Positions 30,433-43,638 of a stretch of 64,000 nt of DNA are shown here, piece after piece. Under the pieces are notes generated by a model. That model saw only the letters and a program-made list of their open reading frames with translations, did no database searches and was not told where the DNA came from. Position numbers and translations under genes: made by a program. How positions within the stretch are numbered: the first letter of the stretch is position 1; the number at the start of each line of letters is the position of its first letter. Location: NCBI GenBank assembly GCA_051251855.1, contig JBPOGI010000002.1, positions 384,001 to 448,000 of the forward strand, given 5' to 3'. The DNA comes from Roseibacillus sp. Its GTDB lineage: Bacteria > Verrucomicrobiota > Verrucomicrobiia > Verrucomicrobiales > Akkermansiaceae.

Positions 30433-31131
30433 ATGAAGAATACAATCAAATTACCTTTACTCGTGCTGGCTGGCGCAGCTCTGGCAACCAGCTCAGCTAG
30501 TGCTGTGACACTCCTCGTCAATTTCGGCGGTGGCGGGGATGTTGATGCGGCGGTCGCTGGCGATTACGCAGTTGCCGATCCCGCTGTGGATCTCGCTGCT
30601 CCAGTCGTTTTTCAGGGATCGGGGGGAGGCACTGCTGTGGGACTTGGCATGACTGTCGATATTAGTACCAACACTGGTAACTTCACTCCTGCCGACACCA
30701 GCATCTGGGGAACAACTCCTATTCTCGATAGTTATCTTTCACGACGGGATAATCCTCTCAATGTCACCGTGACCGGAATCGAGGAGTTGGCTCCTGGAAC
30801 GACATTCGACGTAACGGTCTATGGAGTTGGCGACGCGACCGACCAATGGGGGCCTATCAGCGTCACCTATAATGGTGTGACGACAGCAGAATTCACCACG
30901 GTTGCTGATCCTGCTGCTGCCGGAAACTCGAACGGGGAATTGACTCATGAAACCTTCACCTTAACGAAAGTAGCTGGAGTTGATTCAGTCGTCCTGAACA
31001 ATTCGGGTGTAGGCGGGTCACGTTGGCAAGCAATCAATGGCTTCTCGATCACTGGCACACCGATTCCTGAGCCTTCTTCAGCTCTTCTCGTTGGCTTGGC
31101 AGGATTTGCCTTCCTGAGACGTCGCCGATAG
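30433..31131 (+). CDS. PEP-CTERM sorting domain protein
   Basis: Signal MKNTIKL..ASA; C-term IPEPSSALLVGLAGFAFLRRRR. Confidence 0.9.
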   Translation: MKNTIKLPLLVLAGAALATSSASAVTLLVNFGGGGDVDAAVAGDYAVADPAVDLAAPVVFQGSGGGTAVGLGMTVDISTNTGNFTPADTSIWGTTPILDSYLSRRDNPLNVTVTGIEELAPGTTFDVTVYGVGDATDQWGPISVTYNGVTTAEFTTVADPAAAGNSNGELTHETFTLTKVAGVDSVVLNNSGVGGSRWQAINGFSITGTPIPEPSSALLVGLAGFAFLRRRR

Positions 31132-31155
31132 TCCTCTGATAGATTTTATCTTTAG

Positions 31156-31191
31156 AACCCACTTCGGCAGATTTGTCGAAGTGGGTTTTTT
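31156..31191 (+). terminator. Rho-independent terminator
   Basis: AACCCACTTCGGCA-GATT-TGTCGAAGTGGGTT plus T-run. Confidence 0.85.
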
Positions 31192-31248
31192 ATTGGTTGT
31201 TTCCCGCAAGGTATCGGGGACAATGAGTTCCTGATTTTCACTTTCTAG

Positions 31249-33774
31249 ATGAACAAAATTTTCCGAACGAGGGGAGCTTTCATCGTGCTGCTATCCTTTG
31301 TAGTCTTGGGTGTTATCTTCGTGGCTGGGAGTAGGTTTCGGTCTCAAAAGCAGACTTTCGCTGCAAAGGCTCAGCAAATCACGAAGTCCGAGGAGCTGAT
31401 TCTCGCCCTGCAGCGGATGCTCAGTGATATTTCTAAGAGTGGGAAGAATCGGCAGCTTCCAGATTTCGACGACAGTCGTTTTTTTGAACCCTCTGTATTG
31501 GTGAGAGACCTCACGCCGAAATACGAGATTGCTTCCACTGACAATCTCGAGGTGGCCCTCAAGAACTGGCAAATTGATTCGGAGAATAGACCCGTTCCCG
31601 CAACGAACCTGAGGCTCTTCAGCGCTCTCTTCGATGGTCTCAGCGCGGTAAGAGGTTTCAAAATGAAGATTGTCTCCGGCGAATTCTCCGACACCGAGGA
31701 CTCCTTTACCACCTCTCTTGCCGTTTCAGGATCCGGAAAGCTCACCTCTGAGAACGAGCTCTCTTTCGAAGGGCATTTGGATGTTGAGTGGAGGAATAGC
31801 GGCTCCGATGGCTGGAGAATCAGTCGCTGGGAATTGTTGGATTTCGAGAGTCATGAGAACCTTACGAAGACACCCTTCTTCACCCGTGCCAATGAGGCCT
31901 GTCTGCCGAATGCGGCGGAGCGGAGTAACGCGGAACTTTCCATTCACGACGAACTCATTAAGTCGCTCTTGCTGAACGGAGGTTGCACTCCACCAGGGCC
32001 TAAGTTCGAATACGACTTCGGCTTCGAATCAGCGGCAGCTTGTCCTAGTGTTTCAGTGGTTGATCTCAATGGAGATGGTTGGGATGATTTTTATTTGATG
32101 GCTCGGTGGGGGCGCAATCAGCTCTTTATCAATCAGCAAGATGGCACCTTTAAGGAAAGCGCCGCTGAATTCGGACTCGATATTCTCAATCACTGCACGG
32201 GAGCAGCCTTTGTTGACTTTGATAATGACGGGGACAAGGACCTCATCCTCAGCCGGAGCTACGCGCGCAGCCAAATCCTTGAAAATGTAGGAAATAGGTT
32301 TCACGATGTCAGTCGTTCCTGCGGGGTCGAACTTCCTGCGATGGCGACCTCGGTTTCTGTCGCCGACTATAATAGGGATGGTCTGCTTGATGTCTTCTTC
32401 ACTACCTACGGGAGCGACCGGCTCCTTCGTGAGTTTCTTCCCATGTCGCAGCAGGAGGAGCTAGCGGCGATATCATCTCAGGGGAAGCATCATCCGGTCT
32501 TGAATGCCTTGGGGGCTCCCAATGTCCTATTGGTCAATCGTGGGGGAGGGAAGTTCAAGGTGGCACCCGAGTCACCTCAATTGGCAGGATGGAAGACAAG
32601 CCTTTGCAGTGTGTGGGCGGACTATGATCAGGACGGAGATGCGGACCTCTATGTCAGTAACGACTTCGGTCCAGATGCTCTGATGAGGAACGACTACCCG
32701 AACGGGTTCAAAGATGTGACTCTCGAGGAGGGGCACGAGTCCATGGCTGGATTTGGGATGGGAGTTTCTTGGGGAGACTACGACTTGGATGGGGCACAGG
32801 ATCTCTACATCTCTAACATGTATAGCAAGGCTGGTCTCCGCATTGGGAAGCAGATTGAAGGGATAGACCCGCGATTCGAGAAGTTTAACAACGGCAACCG
32901 TCTCTACCGTCGAAAGGAGAATCACTTTGAGCTCACTTCAGGCTTAAAGCCACCTGAGCATCTTGTGGCGAAAGTCGGTTGGTCTTGGGGAGGGCAATTT
33001 GCGGATTTTAACAATGATGGCTTTTTGGATATTTATGTGCCGTCCGGCTACTTCACCGCGCCCGATGCGGTGGCGGGCGGCGATGATTTGTGAAGTGTCT
33101 ATTGGCGCGGTGCAGTTTGCACCGACCCCGGTTTGGAGAAAGGATTTCGCAACAACAAAGGATGGAAGGACGTCGACTTTGATAGCTTCGTGGTTCAGAA
33201 GCAGGACGCTGATGGCAAATGGTTTGCGCAATCCTTTAGTGGTCATGAAACCAATAAGCTCTTCATGAATCAAGGAGGGGAATCTTTCTTCGATATGTCA
33301 GCTTTAGCCGGTTTGGATAGTGATGCCGATGGGAGATCTTTCGTCCTTTTGGACTACGACCGGGATGGTTGGCAGGATTTGATTCTAGTGAATTCGAACT
33401 CTCCTCAATTGGAAATTTTCCACAATGAAATGGGCCGAAGGTCATTCGGAGGGCGGAGTATCGTGTTTCATCTGATTGGAGGGAATGAAAGTTCGGAGGC
33501 GAGCGAAGAGTGGTCGAATCGAGATGCCCTGGGTGCTGTTGTGACCGTCAAAGTAGCTGGGAAAACAATCATGCGGGAGTTGCGTTGCGGAGAAGGACTC
33601 GGTGCGCAAAATTCTGGAATGTTACTGGTCGGTATCGGCGAGAACGAGATGATTGAATCTGGTGAGGTGAGATGGCCCTCGGGTAAACGTCAGACGCTCG
33701 ATGCTCTCGAAGCAGGAATGTTGGTCACGATAAAAGAAAGAGGCGGAATTGCCGTAAGGACCTATAACCGTTGA
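31249..33774 (+). CDS. FG-GAP/CRTAC1-ASPIC-UnbV protein with in-frame TGA at 33091-33093 (codon 615); 841 aa if read through
   Basis: ORFs 31249..33093 and 33133..33774 share a frame with only the TGA between them; DxNxDG blades on both sides; GDDL*SVYWRGAV; C-term ASPIC/UnbV motifs NRDALGA and VRWPSG. Confidence 0.8.
33108..33124 (+). other. Candidate SECIS-like recoding hairpin
   Basis: CGGTGCA-GTT-TGCACCG, 7-bp stem starting 14 nt after the TGA. Confidence 0.6.
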
Positions 33775-34013
33775 GGTTTAAAGGCCGCTTTTACAGAATG
33801 ATTAATGATTCTTAATCGCTTGCTTCCCGTCATAAGTATCCAAATTTCAATGGGCTGCATCTTTCTTTGCAGAAACCACCATGAACTTTGTCAAAACGGG
33901 TCAAATACTCCGCTTTTACGAGAAAATCGTTGTGCTCTGCTATCTGATTTCTATTATCGCGAAGCTGATTTTGTGGTGTTTGCTTAAACGCCCAATGGCA
34001 ACACCTAGAACTC

Positions 34014-34859
34014 ATGAAAAATAAAACAATACTCGCCTTATTAGCGGTTTCAGCAATTGGCGCGCAAGCAGCGGCGATTCATACTGGGCTTCTGAACTAT
34101 TGGACCTTAGATGGTAATGGAGAAGATTCAGCCAGCGACTTCACAGAAGGAACTAGCACCGTCGAAGATGATATGACAGCGGGTGGCGCTGTTGGAACAA
34201 CGACTATTCTTTCTACTGGAGGCTTGTTTGGGGGCGCCGTTGATTTTGAGGTGGGTTCTGGCGTTGATGGTCATCTCGCTGCGACAGCAAGCGCTGATAC
34301 TCAGTTCGCAGGAGAAAGTATTACTGTCTCTCTTTGGGCTCAGTTCGAAGACAATAGCACTGGCGACTGGCAGTCCCTGCTGGTGAACGGAGAAGGCAAC
34401 AACTACCGCATCTCGACTAACCGCAATAATCCTGGTCGCAACCAAGCAAGCGCAGCCTTCGGAACGGGTGACCTTAACTCAGGGGTGGATATCCGTGCTG
34501 CTGGACCCGTTTCTGGTTTTCACCACATCGTGGTCACTGCAGTCAATGGAGCTCCTGTAAACATCTACGTTAATGGTGTTCTCGAAGGCACTTCCGGCGG
34601 GAATTCTGCAATTACTAATGATGACCCAGGGGTACCCGACGAACTCTGGATTGGAAACAATGTCGATGATCCAGATCGTCAGTGGGACGGATTGATTGAT
34701 GATGTCGCCCAGTGGGATCGTGCTTTGACTGCTGCTGAAGTTACTGAAATCTATGACGCAGGAGTTCTCGGCATCAGTTTGGGTGCCATTCCTGAGCCGA
34801 CTTCAGGACTTCTTCTTGGTCTCGGTGGTTTGACTGTGCTTCTTCGCCGTCGCCGATAA
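34014..34859 (+). CDS. LamG-like domain PEP-CTERM protein
   Basis: NYWTLDG, HHIVVT, IYVNG, WDGLIDDVAQWDRALT; C-term IPEPTSGLLLGLGGLTVLLRRRR. Confidence 0.9.
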   Translation: MKNKTILALLAVSAIGAQAAAIHTGLLNYWTLDGNGEDSASDFTEGTSTVEDDMTAGGAVGTTTILSTGGLFGGAVDFEVGSGVDGHLAATASADTQFAGESITVSLWAQFEDNSTGDWQSLLVNGEGNNYRISTNRNNPGRNQASAAFGTGDLNSGVDIRAAGPVSGFHHIVVTAVNGAPVNIYVNGVLEGTSGGNSAITNDDPGVPDELWIGNNVDDPDRQWDGLIDDVAQWDRALTAAEVTEIYDAGVLGISLGAIPEPTSGLLLGLGGLTVLLRRRR

Positions 34860-34899
34860 ATTCTCATACCCTTCAAGGGTCGTACGTAATTTTTCTAGG

Positions 34900-34930
34900 A
34901 ACGACCGGTCGCAAGATCGGTCGTTTTTTT
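34900..34930 (+). terminator. Rho-independent terminator
   Basis: AACGACCGGTC-GCAA-GATCGGTCGTT plus T-run. Confidence 0.85.
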
Positions 34931-35013
34931 ATTCCCCTTGAGAGTCCAAATTGGGCACAGTATTGCCAGTTCTTTCGATGAAGCCGAGAGAGATTTCGCT
35001 CACCTATTCTTCG

Positions 35014-38000
35014 ATGCAATCATACACGTTATTTCAAAGCCTTGTTTTCGCTTCGGCTTCGTTTTTCTGGGTAGCTCCTCTTCAGGCTATTCCCAAAGTT
35101 TTGGAAGACGAACCCGAGATCATTGCTGCTCCAGGTTTAGAAAATAGGGAACTCGTCGGACCGCTGTCAGAGGTCATTGATCGCTTGTCTCCCAAAGATG
35201 ATGGCTGGGATACCGAGGCCTTTAGTGAGGCCGCTTCCGCTCAGTTGTATCGCTTGGGCGCTCTCTTGAAGTCTCCCGAGAGAGAGGACTCTGCTTACGC
35301 ATCCCTTGCCGATGAGGAATTCACTTCCGCTGTTCTTCGCCCTGATGAGAAGAATCTGGACCTTCTGGAAGGCGACGAATTTCAGGTTCGAAAATGGAAT
35401 GGCGTCATCGATTCCTCAAAGACCCTTTCTCTTTCGGAGGCTTGCAACCAGTTCCGCTCCGCCTTTGCAGCAGACGAAAAGTTGCAACTGGCAAGCAAGC
35501 TCTACAAGGTGATGCCGCAGGGCGAAGGAGTGACCCAGACTGATGTCCTGGTGGAGGCTGCGGGCAAAGCGCCTGCTGCCGGACGCCGCCAGATCAATGC
35601 CGAATGGAGATGTCATTGGAAGGATGAGGAAGGCCAGCCTCAGCTCACGAAAATCGAGCTTCTGAGTTATCAAGAAGTGACTCGTCCCTTGGGGGAAGGA
35701 AAGCCCCTCTTCTCCGATCGAACGAAGGAGGCTTTGGGCCGCAATGCGAGCTTGCAGGAGCAACTCCTTCATTCCTCGGATCATTGGCGGGCCCGATTTC
35801 CGCGGGACCTCGGGCTGGACGTGGTCGCGAACGTGGGCTTCGTGCTGGCAGACCTCAATGGTGATGATTTAGAGGATCTCTATTTTTGCCAGCAAGGCGG
35901 CCTTCCCAACCTGCTCTTTCTTCGGCAACCGAATGGCACCTTCCGAGATGCTTCCGAAGGGAGTGGGGTTGATTGGCTTGATTTTTCTCCCAGTGCGTTG
36001 GCCATTGATCTCGATAAAGATGGCGACCGCGATTTGGTGGTGGCCTTGCAGTTCGAGTTGCTCTTGATGCGCAACGATGGTCAGGCCAAGTTCGAGATCG
36101 TGACCCGCGTTCCGGTTCTGGCGCAGACTTTCTCAATCAGTGCCGCGGACTACGATCTCGATGGCGACCTGGATCTTTTCTCGTGTGGCTATAATCCAAC
36201 GATGGAAGACTTGGAAGAGAGCGGTGCCTTAGGTTCTCCTACCCCGTTCCATGATGCAAACAATGGGGGACCCAATACCCTGCTGAAAAATGTCGGGCCC
36301 TTTGAGTTTCGAGATGCGACTGTGGAGAGTGGCTTGAGCGAACAGAGCAACACTCGCTTTAGCTTTGCTTCTGGTTGGGAAGACTATGACCGGGATGGTG
36401 ACCCTGACCTCTATGTTGCCAACGACTACGGTCGCAATAATCTTTATCGCAATGATGAAGGGAAGTTTGTGGACGCTGCTGGTGAACTGGATGTGGAAGA
36501 TATGTCCTCGGGAATGTCGGTGAGCTGGGGTGATGTCAATCGGGATGGAAAGAGTGATCTTTATGTGAGCAACATGTTTTCTTCGGCGGGCAATCGGATC
36601 ACCTTTCAAAAGCAATTTCAAAATGGAGGGGCGGGGGAAGCTTTGGATACTTTCAAACGTTTCGCACGAGGTAACGCCCTCTTTCTAGGAACTCCAGAGG
36701 GAGATTTTGATGATGTGAGCGAGGAAGCCGGAGCGACGATGGCACGTTGGTCTTGGGGGTCTCGTCTCGCGGATTTGAACAATGATGGGTGGGAGGATAT
36801 TCTCGCGGCCAACGGTTTCATTAGCACGCCCGATACGGGAGACCTCTGAAGTGTCTATTGGCGACAGGTCGTGTCGCTCTCTCCGATTGATGACTTTAAT
36901 GAGCAAGCGTTGCAAAAGTATAAGCACCGCTGGAGTGCCTTGTCTCGCTTGCTTCATGAAGACCGTTCCTTCAGCGGGGGGGAGCGGCATAACGCATTTC
37001 TCAATTTGGGGGAGGGCCGTTTTGCCGATATCTCGGCGGTGACCGGTTTTAACTTTGCGGAAGATGGCCGGGCTTTGGTGACTCAAGATTGGGATTTTGA
37101 TGGCGACCTTGATGTCTGGGTCACGGCACGGACAGCGCCCCGAGTGCGTCTTCTCGAAAACCAATCGCAGAACAGTGGAGAGTCCGTCTTCATTCGTTTG
37201 CAGGGGAATGGAACGACTTCGAACTCAGATGCGGTCGGGGCTCGTTGCGAAGTTTGGTTGGTGGATGATGAGCGGCCTCTGACTCGTTCTCGGACCGCAG
37301 GAGATTCCTTTCTCTCGCAAGGAAGCTCTTGGCTTCACTTTGGACTGGGTGCCGAGCCTCAGATTGCGCGGGTCATTGTTCATTGGCCCGCTGGTCAGAG
37401 TGAAGAGTTCACCGGGATCGAGAGTGGGGGGCGGTACTTGCTCCATCAAGGACAGCCCCAAGCGAAACAGTGGAGTCCTCCTGCCCAAGTGAAGCTCGCC
37501 GAGGCCAGTCCGCTTGAATTGCCTCATGAGACCGAACAAGCCCGGATTGTGCTCCCCAACTCTTTGTTGTTGCCCCTCCTGGAAACAAACGAAGGCGAGG
37601 CGATTTCTGACCCGAGCAAAAAGGGTCCAATAGTGATTAATTTATGGTCTCAGACTTGTTCTTCTTGTCTCGAGGAACTGAAGGAGTGGACCGAGTTCGC
37701 TCCTCAATTGAAAGCGGCCGGCCTTCGGGTCTTGGCCCTCAATACTGATGCCATTGCTCAGACTGGCGATCTTCCAGAGGGACAAGAATTTTTGCGCGAG
37801 ATCGAGTTTCCCTATTCTTCCAACTCCACCAACGAGGACACTCTTCAGCGATTAGACATTTTTCAGCAGAGCTTACTGGACCGATGGCTTCCACTCCCTA
37901 TTCCTTGTAGCTTTCTTGTGAATGCTTCTGGCAAGGTGGCGGTGGTTTACAAGGGTCCCGTTGCTGCAGAGACCTTGCTCGCGGATTTAGCTCTGCTCGA

Positions 38001-38811
38001 AGCTGATTCTGTCACCTTAAGGAACAAGGCCACTCCCTTCTCCGGTAGGTGGGCTGCTGGCCCTCCTCTGATTGGTCCGAAAAGATACGTCGCACGACTT
38101 CTTGATTTCAAAAAAGTTGTCGATGCTGAGCGCTACTATCGGCGCTATCTCGAGTTGGAACGTAAGTTTCCTGACTCGCCGTCGGGTCCGAGGGCCTCTG
38201 CTTTGAAGTTTCTCGCCTTTGTGGCCTCGGGGCGAGAGGACTATGCCTCAGCAATTAGCTACCTCGAGGAGGCTGTTTCTCTCTTTCCTCAGGAACCGGA
38301 ATTTCAGCAACTCCTGAAAACGGCTCAAGACAAGAGGCGACTCTCGTCTCCTAAAGAGACTTTAAAGCCCCTGTTGGCCCAAGTGGAAGCAGAGCCCAAG
38401 AACGGTCAGGCTCATTTGGCTCTTGCTGATGGCTATCGCGACATGGGAGAACCCGCCAAAGCAATCGAAAGTTACAAGAATGCATTGAGACGCGAACCAG
38501 GATTGTTCGTGGCGGCAGGAAAGCTCGCTTGGATTCTAGCAACTCATCCGAGTCCTGAGATTCGGGAGCCAAAAGCAGCCTTGGAGCTGGCCAATCGGCT
38601 CATGTCCCTGAACGCAGCGCCGAATCCCAACTTCTTGGACCTTCAGGGAATCGCGCTCGCTGCTAATGGAGACTTCGCTGCGGCCGTTAAAAAGGCTCAA
38701 GCGGCCTTGGTGCTTTTGCCGGAAGGCTCTCCTTATCAGAAGGAAGTGAGTTCCCGCCTTGGTCTCTATAAAGAAGGAAAAGCCTATTATGAGGGTAAGG
38801 CTTCCAAGTAA
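35014..38811 (+). CDS. FG-GAP/CRTAC1-ASPIC-UnbV-redoxin(CxxC)-TPR protein with in-frame TGA at 36847-36849 (codon 612); 1265 aa if read through
   Basis: ORFs ending 36849 and 36871..38811 are in frame; TGDL*SVYWRQVVS; WSQTCSSCLEEL; TPR-like C-term; start chosen by paralogy with 39063. Confidence 0.8.
36861..36877 (+). other. Candidate SECIS-like recoding hairpin
   Basis: GCGACA-GGTCG-TGTCGC, 11 nt after the TGA. Confidence 0.6.
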
Positions 38812-38945
38812 TTGCGAGTTGATTCGAGTTCCCGCTAGTCGCTGAAATCGCGCTCTGCTTTGCGGGCGTCGAGGTCAGTGAATTCTTTTTAGGTGGCTTC
38901 AATTTCAGCTTCTTCAGAAGGGAGGTAATCAACAATTTTCTATAG

Positions 38946-38975
38946 AACGATTGGTTGAAAGATCGGTCGTTTTTT
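38946..38975 (+). terminator. Duplicated terminator (copy of 34900-34930)
   Basis: AACGATTGGTT-GAAA-GATCGGTCGTT plus T-run; C>T changes retain G-U pairing. Confidence 0.65.
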
Positions 38976-39062
38976 ATTTCCTTTTAGAGTCCTCACTGGA
39001 CACATTGATGACAACCCTCTTGATGAGGTCGTTCGTAGATTTCGAGTCTCACTTATTGTTCG

Positions 39063-42000
39063 ATGCAGTCATATAATTCATTTTCAAGCCTTGTTCTGGT
39101 TTCGACTTTTTTTCTCTGGGCGGCTCTTGTTCAAAGTGCTCCCCAAGCTTCGCAAGACGAACCTGAAATCATTGCTGCTCCTGGGTTGGATGAGAGAGAG
39201 TTGGTGGGGCCGTTGTCCGAGGTGCTCGATCATATGTCTCCCAAGGATGATGGCTGGGATACCGAAGCCTTCAGTGAGGCCGCATCTGCACAATTGTATC
39301 GCCTAGGCAACCTCTTGAAGTCTCCCGATATGGATGCCGCGACTCTCGCGGACCTCACGGATGGTAGTTTTGTGTCCGCAACTCTCCGACCCAAGGAAGC
39401 CTCTCTCGATCTCTCGGAAGAAAGCGAGTTTGAGGTTCGCAAATGGAATGGCGAACTCGATTCAACAAAGGCTCTTACTCTTTCTGATGCCTCTCTTAAA
39501 TTCCGCGCTGCCTTTGCTCCCGAAGAGGTTTTGCAAATCAAAACCAAGCTTTACAAGGTGATGCCGCAGGATGGGGGAGTCACGCTCACCGATGTCTTGG
39601 TGGAGGCCTCTGCCAAAGCTAGCACCTCTGGACGCCGCCAGATCAATGCCGAATGGAGGTGCCATTGGAAGAGCGAGGACGACCAGCCGTTGCTCACTCG
39701 AATCGAGCTTTTGAAGTATGAGGAGGTGACCCGTCCCCAAGGGAAAGGCCAGCCTCTCTTTGTTGACCGGACCAGAACCGCGCTCGGCAATAACGCGAGC
39801 TTGGATAAGCAACTCCTGCATTCCACGGACCATTGGCGGGCACGGATTCCGCAAAGTCTGGGTTTGGATGTGGTGGCGAACGTGGGTCTATTGCTCGCGG
39901 ACCTGAACGGTGATGATTTGGAAGACCTTTACGTTTGCCAACAAGGAGGCTTGCCCAACCTGCTCTTCCTGCGTCAACCGGATGGCACCTTTGTCGATGC
40001 TTCCAAAGAGAGTGGGGTTGATGTCCTTGATTTTACAGCGAGCTCCTTGGCCATCGATCTCGATAAGGATGGCGACCGCGATTTGGTGGTGGCTTTGCAG
40101 TTCGAACTCATGTTGATGCGGAATAATGGCCAAGCGAAGTTCGAGCTGATGGCTCGGGTTCCATTAGCCGCTCAGACTTTTTCGATCAGTGCCTCTGACT
40201 ACGACCTGGACGGCGATCTCGACATTTTCACCTGCGGTTATAATCCGTCATTGCAAGAGGCTGAAGAAAATGGAGCGTTAGGTTCTCCTTCTCCCTTTCA
40301 TGATGCCAACAATGGCGGACGCAATACTTTCTTGAAGAATGTGGGAGCCTTTGAGTTCCAGGACGTGACTGTGGAAAGCGGCATCAGTGAGCAGAACAAC
40401 ACTCGCTTCAGTTTTGCTTCTGCTTGGGAAGACTATGATCGTGACGGCGATCCCGACCTTTATGTCGCCAACGATTACGGGCGTAATAACCTTTACCGTA
40501 ACGATGGCGGAAAGCTGGTAGATGTCGCCGCTGAATTGAAGGTAGAGGATATGTCTTCGGGGATGTCGGTGAGTTGGGGCGACCTGAATCGTGATGGTCG
40601 AAGCGATCTCTATGTGAGCAATATGTTTTCTTCGGCAGGGAATCGCATCACCTTTCAAAAGCAGTTTCAAAATGGAGGGGCAGGGGAGGCCTTGGATACT
40701 TTTCAACGATTCGCGCGAGGCAATGCTCTCTTCCTTGCCACTCCCGATGGAGGCTTCGATGATGCCAGTGAGGATGCGGGAGCGACCATGGCTCGATGGG
40801 CTTGGGGCTCTCGTCTGGCGGATTTGAATAACGATGGTTGGGAGGATGTCCTGGCTGCCAACGGCTTCATTAGCACCCCCGATACGGGAGACCTCTGAAG
40901 TGTCTATTGGCGACAGGTCGTGTCGCACTCTCCCATTGATGACTTTAGTGAGCAGTCGGTGCAGAAGTATAAGAATCGTTGGAGCGCCTTATCGCGTTTG
41001 CTCCGCTCTGATCGCTCCTTCAGTGGCGGAGAGAGGCATTGTGCTTTCCTCAATCTGGGGGGAGAGCGTTTTGCCGACATCTCGGCGGTGACGGGTTTTG
41101 ATTTTGCAGAAGATGGTCGCGCCTTGGTGACCGAGGATTGGGACTTCGATGGCGACCTCGATGTCTGGGTCACCGCACGAACGGCTCCACGAGTGCGCCT
41201 CCTTGAAAATACTTCTCAGAATGCGGGAGAGTCTCTTTTCCTCCGCTTGCATGGGAACGGAACCACAACGAATCCAGACGCGGTGGGGGCTCGCTGCGAA
41301 GTCTGGTTAGAGGGAGATGACAGACCTCTCACCCGTTCTCGCACTGCGGGAGACTCCTTCATTTCTCAAGGGAGTTCTTGGTTGCACTTTGGGCTCGGGG
41401 TGGAGCCGAAGATTGCGCGAGTGATTGTTCATTGGCCTGCTGGTCAGAGTGAAGAGTTCACAGGGATTGAGAGCGGAGGACGCTACCTTCTTCATCAAGG
41501 GCAGCCGCAAGCGAAAGGTTGGAGTCCTCCAGCGCAGGTGAAGTTCGCAGAAGTCAGCCCTCTTGAGTTGCCTCATGAGCCCGAACAAGCCCGTATTGTT
41601 TTACCGAACTCGCTTCTATTGCCTCTCCTGCAGACTCATGAGGGTGCTGCTATTTCTGACTTCAATAAAGAGGGGCCAACGCTCATCAATTTGTGGTCTC
41701 AGACTTGTTCTTCATGTCTTGAGGAGTTGAAGGAGTGGACCGAGTTCAAACCTAAATTCGAGGCTGCGGGTTTGAGGGTGATAGCTCTCAATACCGATGC
41801 TATCGGTCAAACTGACGAGAGCTCTGAGGGGCAGGATTTTCTGAGCGAGATCGAGTTTCCTTATTCAGCTCAGTCCGCCAACGTGGAGACCCTGCAGCGA
41901 TTGGATCTCTTTCAACAAAGCTTTCTCGACCGATGGCTTCCGTTGCCAGTTCCATGCAGTTTCCTGCTGGATCGTTTCGGTAAGGCGGCGGTGATTTATA

Positions 42001-42860
42001 AAGGCCCTGTCGCAGCAGAGACTTTGCTCGCGGATTTGGCCCTGCTTGAAGCCGATTCTGAGACGTTGAGGAGTAACGCCACCCCCTTCGCCGGTATCTG
42101 GGCTGACGGTCCACCTCTAGTGGGACCGAAAAGCTATGTCACCCGGCTTTTGGACTACAAGAAGCTGGCCGATGCCGAGCGTTATTACCGGCGCTACGTG
42201 GAGATGGAGCGCAGCCTTCCGGACACCCCTTCGGGACCCATGATTGAAGCCTTAAAGTTTCTCGCTCTTCTTGCTTCTCGAACAGAGAACTTTGCTCCCG
42301 CAGTAGCGCATCTTGAAGAAGCAATTTCTATCGTTCCAGAGGACCCTGAGCTGCAACAGCTTCTTAAGGAGGCTCAGGAGAAGCTTAAAGGTGCCACTCC
42401 GACGGATCTGTTATCGCCCTTGCTGGCCAAAGTGGAAGCCGAGCCAAAAAATGGGAAAGCTCATCTCGAACTTGCGGATGCTTATCGTAATCTTGGAGAA
42501 GCAGCGAAAGCGGTCGAAAGTTATAAGAACACGCTGAGGAACGATCCGAAATTGTTTGTGGCCGCTGGGAAGCTGGCTTGGATTCTCGCAACTCACCCCA
42601 GCCCAGAGATTCGTGAGCCAGAGGCGGCTTTGCAGTTGGCGAATCGACTCGTGGCGATGAACGGAGCAATGAATCCAAATTTCTTGGACCTTCAGGGAAT
42701 CGCGCTGGCAGCTAATGGTAAATATGAAGCGGCCGCAGAAAAAGCTGAAGCGGCCTTGCCGCTCGTGCCAGAAGGCTCTCCTTACCAGAAGGAAATTCGT
42801 TCCCGCCTGAGTCTCTATCAAGAGGGGAAGGCCTACTTTGAGGGAAAGGATTCTAAGTGA
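39063..42860 (+). CDS. Tandem paralog: FG-GAP/CRTAC1-ASPIC-UnbV-redoxin(CxxC)-TPR protein with in-frame TGA at 40896-40898 (codon 612); 1265 aa if read through
   Basis: ORFs 39063..40898 and 40920..42860 are in frame; TGDL*SVYWRQVVS; WSQTCSSCLEEL. Confidence 0.8.
40910..40926 (+). other. Candidate SECIS-like recoding hairpin
   Basis: GCGACA-GGTCG-TGTCGC, 11 nt after the TGA. Confidence 0.6.
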
Positions 42861-42948
42861 TCCTTGATTGGCCCAAGTGACTTTCCATTGCGGTTTCCAA
42901 ATTCCGATTTGTTGTGTCGCCTTGTTCCTGTGAGAAAATGCGGCGGCT

Positions 42949-43638
42949 TTATAGGCGGTTTCTTCGGAAGAAAAAGATGCCCAAAGTCATTGAGGCGAAG
43001 AGGGGAAGGCTGGGCTCGGGCACGGCAGAGAAGGTGCCAAGCATCCTGACGGAGAAATCACCCGCCGGGCCGTTGTTAAAACTAAATTGCAAGCTATCGA
43101 CTTGCGAGAAGTCGGTGGCGCTCGCATTGGTGAAGGAGGAGAAGGGAAAGTCAATGAGGGTGTCGTTGGTGAGGGCGCTCGCTTGAAGGATTTGGAGGCT
43201 AGCGACCTGACTGTTGATGTCGGTTACTGAGACGCTGATTTCGAGATTTGCATCAGAGTCGGCAACGAGGAAGGCGAGCGAGGTAGCGCCACCTGCCGAG
43301 AGGTCGAAGCCACCGAGTCCGGCGCTATTGGCATCATAGGTGAGGGAGAGGTCGGCGGTGAGACCGGGGCCGAGTTCGGCAAAGTATTGGCCTGTGACAG
43401 AACTGACACCCACATTGGCAGTACGCGCAAAAGGGTTAGAGGTGACTGTTACCTCGATATTGCGCCAAGCTCCTGGAATGGAGTTTGAGGGATCTTGGAA
43501 GCTCTGTTGATGGGAGCCGGAGGAAACGGAGAGAGGGCTAGGGCCTGAGTCAAAGTTGTCGAGCGCCTGAACCAAAGTCAGTGCGGCTGGGCAATTGAAG
43601 GAGACGGCAAAAGTGCAAAGGAGAGTAGGGCGAATCAT
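42949..43638 (-). CDS. PEP-CTERM sorting domain protein
   Basis: C-term VPEPSLPLFASMTLGIFFFRRNRL; N-terminal signal-like segment. Confidence 0.8.
   Translation of the reverse strand: MIRPTLLCTFAVSFNCPAALTLVQALDNFDSGPSPLSVSSGSHQQSFQDPSNSIPGAWRNIEVTVTSNPFARTANVGVSSVTGQYFAELGPGLTADLSLTYDANSAGLGGFDLSAGGATSLAFLVADSDANLEISVSVTDINSQVASLQILQASALTNDTLIDFPFSSFTNASATDFSQVDSLQFSFNNGPAGDFSVRMLGTFSAVPEPSLPLFASMTLGIFFFRRNRL

Follow-up and report, generated by a model that had tools for sequence, protein, structure and literature searches.

In the consensus outlined in PMC13188914, a bacterial selenocysteine insertion sequence (SECIS; bSECIS for the bacterial type) is a stem-loop in the coding region immediately after the UGA, with a loop of 3–9 nt, a stem of 4–16 bp, at least one G among the first two loop nucleotides (as a rule GG or GU), a spacing of 16–37 nt and a free energy of −7.5 kcal/mol or lower. 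The element of Escherichia coli fdhF reads UGA, 11 nt and GGUUGCA/GGUC/UGCACC with one bulged U (NC_000913.3), as an earlier note on this DNA had stated. We analysed a stretch of 64,000 nt from Roseibacillus sp. (GenBank assembly GCA_051251855.1, contig JBPOGI010000002.1, positions 384,001–448,000; hereafter the window), in which three tandem genes for proteins resembling CRTAC1 (cartilage acidic protein 1) each carry one in-frame TGA followed by a hairpin. Judged from their sequences, the three hairpins are very probably bacterial SECIS elements of the fdhF type, lying within the reading frame after an in-frame UGA. The element itself is ordinary; less ordinary are its host family, the size of that family and the natural series of SECIS variants that it holds.

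Positions within the element are counted from the U of the UGA as 0, and all window coordinates are on the forward strand. Copy 1 (31249–33774) comprises 841 codons when translated through its single UGA (U615). The TGA at 33091–33093 is the predicted selenocysteine (Sec) codon of the motif D-L-U-S-V-Y-W-R, and this column is Cys in two paralogues of the same genome (RDYCSNFW and SDYCSTFWR). The putative SECIS upper stem-loop of copy 1, CGGUGCA/GUU/UGCACCG, spans 33108–33124 (CGGTGCA at 33108–33114, GTT at 33115–33117 and TGCACCG at 33118–33124 in the DNA) and starts 14 nt past the UGA; a lower helix is predicted between 33101–33105 (AUUGG) and 33128–33132 (CCGGU). Copy 2 (34951–38811, read through one UGA as U633) has its TGA at 36847–36849 and the stem-loop GGCGACA/GGUCG/UGUCGCU at 36860–36878; the core stem GCGACA (36861–36866), followed by GGTCG and by TGTCGC ending at 36877, starts 11 nt past the UGA, and a seventh, terminal pair is the G-U between 36860 and 36878. 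In copy 3 (39063–42860; 1265 codons via one UGA, U612), the TGA lies at 40896–40898 and the stem-loop GCGACA/GGUCG/UGUCGC at 40910–40926, again 11 nt past the UGA. The letters, coordinates and spacings given in the earlier note were found to be correct base for base at all three sites. It was also right that the peptides encoded downstream differ (WRGAVCT in copy 1, WRQVVS in copies 2 and 3), that the loops start with G and contain GU (GUU, GGUCG and GGUCG), and that the bulged U of fdhF is missing; the family consensus lacks this U as well.

All three copies agree with the bSECIS consensus as outlined in PMC13188914. The loop and stem measure 3 nt and 7 bp in copy 1, 5 nt and 7 bp in copy 2, and 5 nt and 6 bp in copy 3; copy 1 has a spacing of 21 nt and the other two copies one of 17 nt, and the energies of the hairpins alone (−9.6, −9.5 and −7.9 kcal/mol for copies 1, 2 and 3) stay within the limit. 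With RNAfold, each hairpin was part of the minimum-free-energy fold, the 52-nt folds of copies 1, 2 and 3 having −17.0, −14.1 and −11.3 kcal/mol. Such hairpins also arise by chance: when 3317 other in-frame codons of these genes were searched over the same range, 15% had a hairpin with a perfect stem and −5 kcal/mol or lower, 4.7% one that reached −7.9 and 2.3% one that reached −9.5 kcal/mol. Copies 2 and 3 count as one event because they are paralogues with 78% protein identity, and the contrast of different sequences with the same structure does not apply to this near-identical pair. In the window alone the signal is modest; the excess over chance stems from the comparison of homologues.

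That comparison, which the earlier note had suggested, used 121 loci fetched from related genomes, all with the site, which came down to 94 unique sites with TGA and 19 with Cys. With a perfect stem of −5 kcal/mol or lower as the criterion, the hairpin was present at 93 of the 94 TGA sites and at none of the 19 Cys sites, the best of which reached −2.3 kcal/mol. The G-U at positions 21–22 was distributed likewise (93/94 versus 0/19), and GGUC began at position 20 in 80 of the 94 TGA sites. In a set spanning several phyla, 65 of 71 TGA sites met the energy threshold and 70 had the G-U; in a metagenome set, 49 of 51 unique sites passed. A Candidatus Polarisedimenticolia contig from a metagenome-assembled genome (L180, positions 838–907) has Ser (UCG) at the Sec column and is the only sense-codon member of the best 80 cross-phylum relatives; it still encodes WRQVV, by other codons, but the hairpin is gone (−3.1 kcal/mol). 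The hairpin accompanies the TGA rather than the protein.

The TGA itself is conserved among orthologues with the frame open on both sides, and it aligns with Cys in homologues, among them a Cys-type clade with the motif DYC[ST]xFWCHD. The family was present in 17 of 61 related genomes, where 92 of 101 matches contained the TGA; of the nine that did not, five cover the site. In a sample of the order, a Cys paralogue as query matched 33 of 151 genomes, and of the 146 rows 124 had exactly one TGA and 22 no stop; those of the 22 that were fetched were of the Cys type. At E 1e-25, 400 genomes sampled across the phylum added neither Cys controls nor any hit beyond the window's own genome, which indicates that the family is patchy. 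A cross-phylum scan with one genome per species and an alignment of type B sequences only (defined below) as query gave 592 relatives. The best 80 of these came from Verrucomicrobiota (Akkermansiaceae, Roseibacillus, Limisphaerales), Planctomycetota and Acidobacteriota; 79 had a stop at the Sec site (71 TGA by script and 8 stops in the tblastn alignments), and the remaining one was the Ser-containing L180. Among the 80 metagenome loci listed, 59 had the TGA site (all of L222–L280), and the other 21 were distant non-Sec relatives or had no recognisable site. As a side observation, the base 3′ of the UGA is A in 80 of 80 aligned homologues (33094–33095, 36850–36851 and 40899–40900 in the window), and the Ser codon that follows is almost always AGY, not UCN. 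The A together with AGY may be a context preference for recoding over termination.

The genome holds the complete machinery for Sec decoding: selB (331 bits, cut-off 242), selA (456, cut-off 268), selD (376, cut-off 125), which itself has an in-frame TGA, and a tRNA-Sec (63.9 bits against Rfam RF01852; SeC with anticodon tca according to ARAGORN). With this gene content the organism should be able to read UGA as Sec. UGA is otherwise an ordinary stop in this genome, where TGA terminates 364 of 1595 (23%) stop-to-stop frames of at least 400 codons. Among the 61 related genomes, selA was present in all 17 that bear the family and the family in none of the 31 that lack selA, counts that are inflated by kinship among the genomes. 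Two genomes that belong to a different family of the order have selA no more than about 10 kb away from members of the present gene family (G045:C1:4458172–4483061 and G057:C1:197634–209082).

These data bear on the possibility that the UGA is read without SelB, either in a reassigned code (as Trp or Gly) or by near-cognate read-through stimulated by the hairpin. Downstream RNA structures can promote stop-codon read-through in other systems, which gives the second form some plausibility, and for the first PMC13462651 reports reassignment of UGA to Trp in some Verrucomicrobiota. Yet 23% of long frames in this genome end in TGA, as do copies 1 and 3 themselves, each gene has a single in-frame TGA that always falls at the Cys column of the paralogues, the family is confined to genomes with selA, and the loop matches those of fdhA and selD in the same genome. 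Decoding without SelB is consequently considered very unlikely, and SelB-dependent Sec insertion at a SECIS is preferred.

The second possibility is that the peptide (W-R-Q-V-V-S or W-R-[AT]-V-V-R) is what is conserved and that the hairpin simply follows from it. As RNA the hairpin would then serve no function, and the UGA would be decoded, or not, regardless of it. Peptide and hairpin are indeed conserved together within a subfamily and are inseparable in the near-identical copies 2 and 3, and the 60-nt folds around the sites have no significant z-scores. The paired positions, however, covary. In the type B helix (60 sequences) 86.9% of cells were paired, versus 23–72% when the 3′ partner was slid by 1–3 columns; one pair occurred as GU 35, AU 13, CG 7 and GC 4 times and was never unpaired, and the covariation score was 0.201 versus 0.091 for shuffled alignments, with none of 500 shuffles reaching 0.201. 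The type A helix (20 sequences) was 90.7% paired, and one of its pairs changed from CG (16 sequences) to AU (4), with Arg replaced by Ser on one arm and by Leu on the other. The paired double changes that the earlier note had proposed to look for were thus found, and several alter the encoded residues: RQVVS becomes RQVVA as CGR becomes CGC, and the variants RRVTS, RSVGS, SQVVA and STVVL are built in the same way.

Silent sites point in the same direction. We measured how often pairs of sequences with the same residue also use the same codon, over 240 unique segments. This synonymous codon identity was 0.87–0.95 at codons +5 to +9 (type B fell to 0.38 at +5 and 0.71 at +7, and type A to 0.63 at +9), versus mostly 0.25–0.65, and at most 0.80, in the flanking codons; codon choice is frozen only inside the hairpin. 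The frozen silent sites and the covariation together indicate that the RNA is under selection and fixes the residues. Val at +7 corresponds to the loop G-U, and the Cys homologues have Asp there. Since, in addition, L180 has WRQVV without the hairpin, the Cys homologues have neither, and copy 1 shares its hairpin geometry with a clade (described below) of unrelated letters, a mere by-product of the peptide appears highly improbable. The statement in the earlier note that the structure and not the peptide is conserved needs to be divided accordingly: it holds between subfamilies and registers, but not within a subfamily, where W-R-x-V-V is constant too, because the RNA fixes those residues.

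The SECIS-like hairpin occurs in three registers in this family. In register 1 (type A) the 5′ arm occupies positions 14–19, i.e. it starts 11 nt past the UGA, and GGUC forms the loop. Type B, to which copies 2 and 3 belong, uses register 2, with the same arm position and the loop GGUCG. In register 3, that of copy 1, the arm lies at 17–23 (14 nt past the UGA) and the loop at 24–26 is GUU or GUG. Over the family the loop was found as GGUC, GGUCG, GUU, GUG, GUUC and GGCC, and there are more than 200 variants overall. A clade from metagenomes whose peptide is DLUSDFWRSVVRGDK repeats the geometry of copy 1 in a different sequence, CUCCGUG-GUU-CGCGGAG. When copy 1 was aligned with ten sequences of this clade, 97.4% of cells were paired and four of the seven pairs had changed on both sides. 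By analogy with this clade, the hairpin of copy 1 is likely to be a working SECIS in an alternative register.

Several observations weigh against the interpretation of the hairpins as SECIS elements. Copy 1 is the sole site of the 94 without G-U at positions 21–22, and its relatives in the related genomes and the metagenome scan were no closer than 49% identity, so that its register rests on analogy with another clade. One TGA locus of the related genomes, L062, has no passing hairpin (the arms are the usual ones, with one C-C mismatch); the stems of L152, L158, L168, L203, L207 and L219 have one mismatch or are shortened, and two hairpins among the 51 metagenome sites are weak. Loops without U were found as well, GGCC at 4 of the 51 unique metagenome sites and GGGCG in L217. 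The homologues are related, and the counts therefore overstate independence. The narrow fdhF-type criterion, a bulged U in the 5′ arm, does not describe any of the copies or the family consensus, and a cmscan search of 31000–43000 at E ≤10 returned five weak Rfam matches, none of a SECIS family and none at the hairpins. Finally, taken without the homologues, the 60-nt folds of the window do not exceed dinucleotide shuffles in stability (z-scores of −0.91, −0.90 and +0.39); as these are not significant, stability of the whole segment cannot be used, and the local hairpin energy relative to background codons and homologues was used instead.

All three genes encode FG-GAP repeats followed by an UnbV_ASPIC domain (PF07593), which places them in the CRTAC1/ASPIC-UnbV family. 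The Pfam matches (FG-GAP_3, E-values of 1e-32 to 1e-40, in four or five stretches per copy, with five in copy 1; UnbV_ASPIC, 2e-12 to 3e-14) all pass the cut-offs; none of the NCBIfam models did so for the three copies. Copies 2 and 3 share an architecture with additional TPR repeats and an AhpC/TSA-redoxin-like, C-terminal thioredoxin-like domain, in which C-S-S-C forms a CxxC motif (37657–37668 in copy 2, within WSQTCSSC; 41706–41717 in copy 3); copy 1 has no thioredoxin-like tail. Read-through yields 841 residues for copy 1, about 1265 for copy 2 and 1265 for copy 3. The N-termini, read by eye, resemble signal or anchor sequences (that of copy 1 is hydrophobic), and the products are predicted to be exported. 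The open reading frame tool places the start of copy 2 at TTG 34951; ATG 35014 gives MQSYTLF and an upstream context that match copy 3, and is probably the likelier true start.

In each gene the TGA follows the last propeller blade and precedes the UnbV domain, within the motif D-L-U-S-x-x-W-R, and it is the only one in frame; copies 1 and 3 also end with TGA as their terminal stop. That the internal TGAs are real stops, in pseudogenes or in loci of two genes each with hairpins that are due to chance or terminator-like, is extremely improbable: gene callers do split the genes (a product from the window is recorded as a 602-aa fragment, and the planctomycete candidates in Table S9 of PMC4807772 are annotated as two genes each), but past the TGA the frame runs on for 226 to 653 codons and encodes UnbV_ASPIC, the genes have no other internal stop, and the TGA occupies the same column in 240 unique segments from three phyla.

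Around these genes, a Laminin_G_3 (concanavalin-like) gene sits between copies 1 and 2 (34014–34859). A weak Rfam match to sroB at 34862–34930 (34.5 bits against a gathering score of 44; E 0.16) is most likely due to chance. The neighbouring NHL-repeat, CorA, Laminin_G_3 and ABC-F genes offer no clue to function.

The size of the family was estimated with the pattern D-L-U-x-x-x-W-R in five genomes; as the pattern is exact, the counts are lower bounds. The UGA was followed by AG in 3 of the 7 matches of this genome and, for the four others, in 16 of 19, 21 of 31, 15 of 22 and 9 of 10; the reversed-pattern control gave 0–2 matches. Some Verrucomicrobiales (G060, G623, G572 and G049) thus carry at least about 9 to 21 Sec-encoding paralogues per genome.

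A further form of the protein has Glu at the Sec column. With the C-terminal half of copy 1 as query, 118 of the 120 best full-length database relatives had Glu there (DLESNLWRTMVR); the other two were one Cys form and the window's own fragment. A Glu form used as query in a sample of 301 genomes of the order gave 53 rows, 51 with the TGA and two partial ones that end before the site. In the aligned tails, both CxxC columns hold Cys in all 16 long type A Sec forms and in 61 of the 64 type B ones (77 of 80 together). Of 104 Glu forms, by contrast, just 3 have C..C there and 81 have N..Y. Since most Glu forms belong to a single clade, the loss of CxxC represents one or few evolutionary events. 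From this co-occurrence, Sec is probably redox-active, with the CxxC in the thioredoxin-like domain at the C-terminus as its proposed partner. That Sec accompanies an intact CxxC, and Glu a lost one, is a lead to the chemistry of bacterial CRTAC1-like proteins.

The host family has left few traces in print. Kim et al. (2016, PMC4807772) list planctomycete candidates in Table S9, with a SECIS predicted by bSECISearch in three of four and G as the residue aligned in the closest hit; the paper gives no SECIS structure, Cys homologue or family extent, and its main text is silent on ASPIC and FG-GAP. The terms FG-GAP, ASPIC, UnbV, VCBS, CRTAC1 and Verrucomicrobi* are absent from the main texts of PMC13188914 (a 2026 review), PMC12013277 and PMC13326102. 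They are also absent from the supplements of deep-Sep and BSepDB (PMC12013277 and PMC13326102), which are possibly incomplete or may use other names. Literature searches combining selenocysteine or selenoprotein with UnbV, FG-GAP, CRTAC1 or ASPIC returned no relevant paper. Within the literature searched, the family was found in print only in the one supplementary table of 2016.

Based on established SelB biology, a mechanism for these genes can be proposed. SelB-GTP carrying Sec-tRNA(Sec) would bind the apical loop, with the exposed G-U as the contact. When the UGA enters the A site, the tethered SelB would deliver Sec-tRNA(Sec) in competition with release factor 2, and the gene would be translated as one exported CRTAC1-like protein of 841–1265 residues with Sec in D-L-U-S-x-x-W-R. 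Lying within coding sequence, the element would also dictate W-R-x-V-V-x at +5 to +10, with a Val codon that begins at the loop G-U.

The hairpins would certify a large selenoprotein family that gene callers split in two. The split calling, together with the absence from the catalogues, implies that the annotation is wrong at these loci in hundreds of genomes of Verrucomicrobiota, Planctomycetota and Acidobacteriota, and that selenium use by marine bacteria is under-counted. The family is moreover an unusually clear record of an in-frame RNA structure dictating protein sequence, and could serve to calibrate the rules for SECIS prediction. More speculatively, it may constitute a large family of exported selenoenzymes that the catalogues searched do not contain, in which Sec at the propeller/UnbV junction pairs with the CxxC, with some 15–21 paralogues per genome in some Verrucomicrobiales and, given a SECIS rebuilt in at least three registers, a SelB that tolerates a 3-nt shift of the loop; as a whole we regard this proposal as doubtful. 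If true, the paralogue-rich genomes would rank among the larger bacterial selenoproteomes, and the family would amount to a natural mutagenesis series for the spacing rules of SECIS elements.

The only solved relative detected by sequence is human CRTAC1 (PDB 9etn, E 1.8e-11), which shares the FG-GAP propeller and the ASPIC/UnbV-type architecture but is very distant, has no thioredoxin-like tail and, in a low-confidence alignment, shows neither Cys nor Sec at the Sec column. The planctomycete candidates of PMC4807772 have the same domain composition as the genes of the window and belong to a different phylum. At the level of the RNA, the earlier note had proposed a comparison with known SECIS elements of the same genome, and those of fdhA and selD were found to have the GGUC loop too. 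The fdhA element (stem from 14 to 20, loop GGUCU) starts 11 nt past the UGA, as in copies 2 and 3. That of selD has a 5-bp stem and a GGUCU loop at position 35, unlike the spacing of the copies, and a thioredoxin-like gene with a UGPC motif has a GGUC loop at position 22. The stems of these three are 5–7 bp long, and the GUU loop of copy 1 has no counterpart among them. The UGPC gene (L009:2835–3740) lies right after selA, with a TGA at L009:3042–3044 and the 5-bp hairpin CUUCG-GGUC-CGAAG; its product, a lipoprotein-like thioredoxin fold (Thioredoxin_7, 2.7e-10) with U-G-P-C, is a further selenoprotein candidate.

The fdhF element of E. coli is likewise located inside the open reading frame, with 6–7 pairs and an exposed G-U, and it resembles copies 2 and 3 in the 5′ arm that starts 11 nt past the UGA and in the GGUC of the loop. 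It differs in the bulged U, which is absent here, and in the start of the loop, at 21 in fdhF versus 20 here, one nucleotide nearer to the UGA; in addition, the loop of copies 2 and 3 is the 5-nt GGUCG, and copy 1 has its element moved 3 nt downstream with a GUU loop. The paired bases GGUGCA/UGCACC of copy 1 (33109–33123) are letter-identical to those of fdhF minus the bulged U, an identity that is probably a matter of coincidence or convergence.

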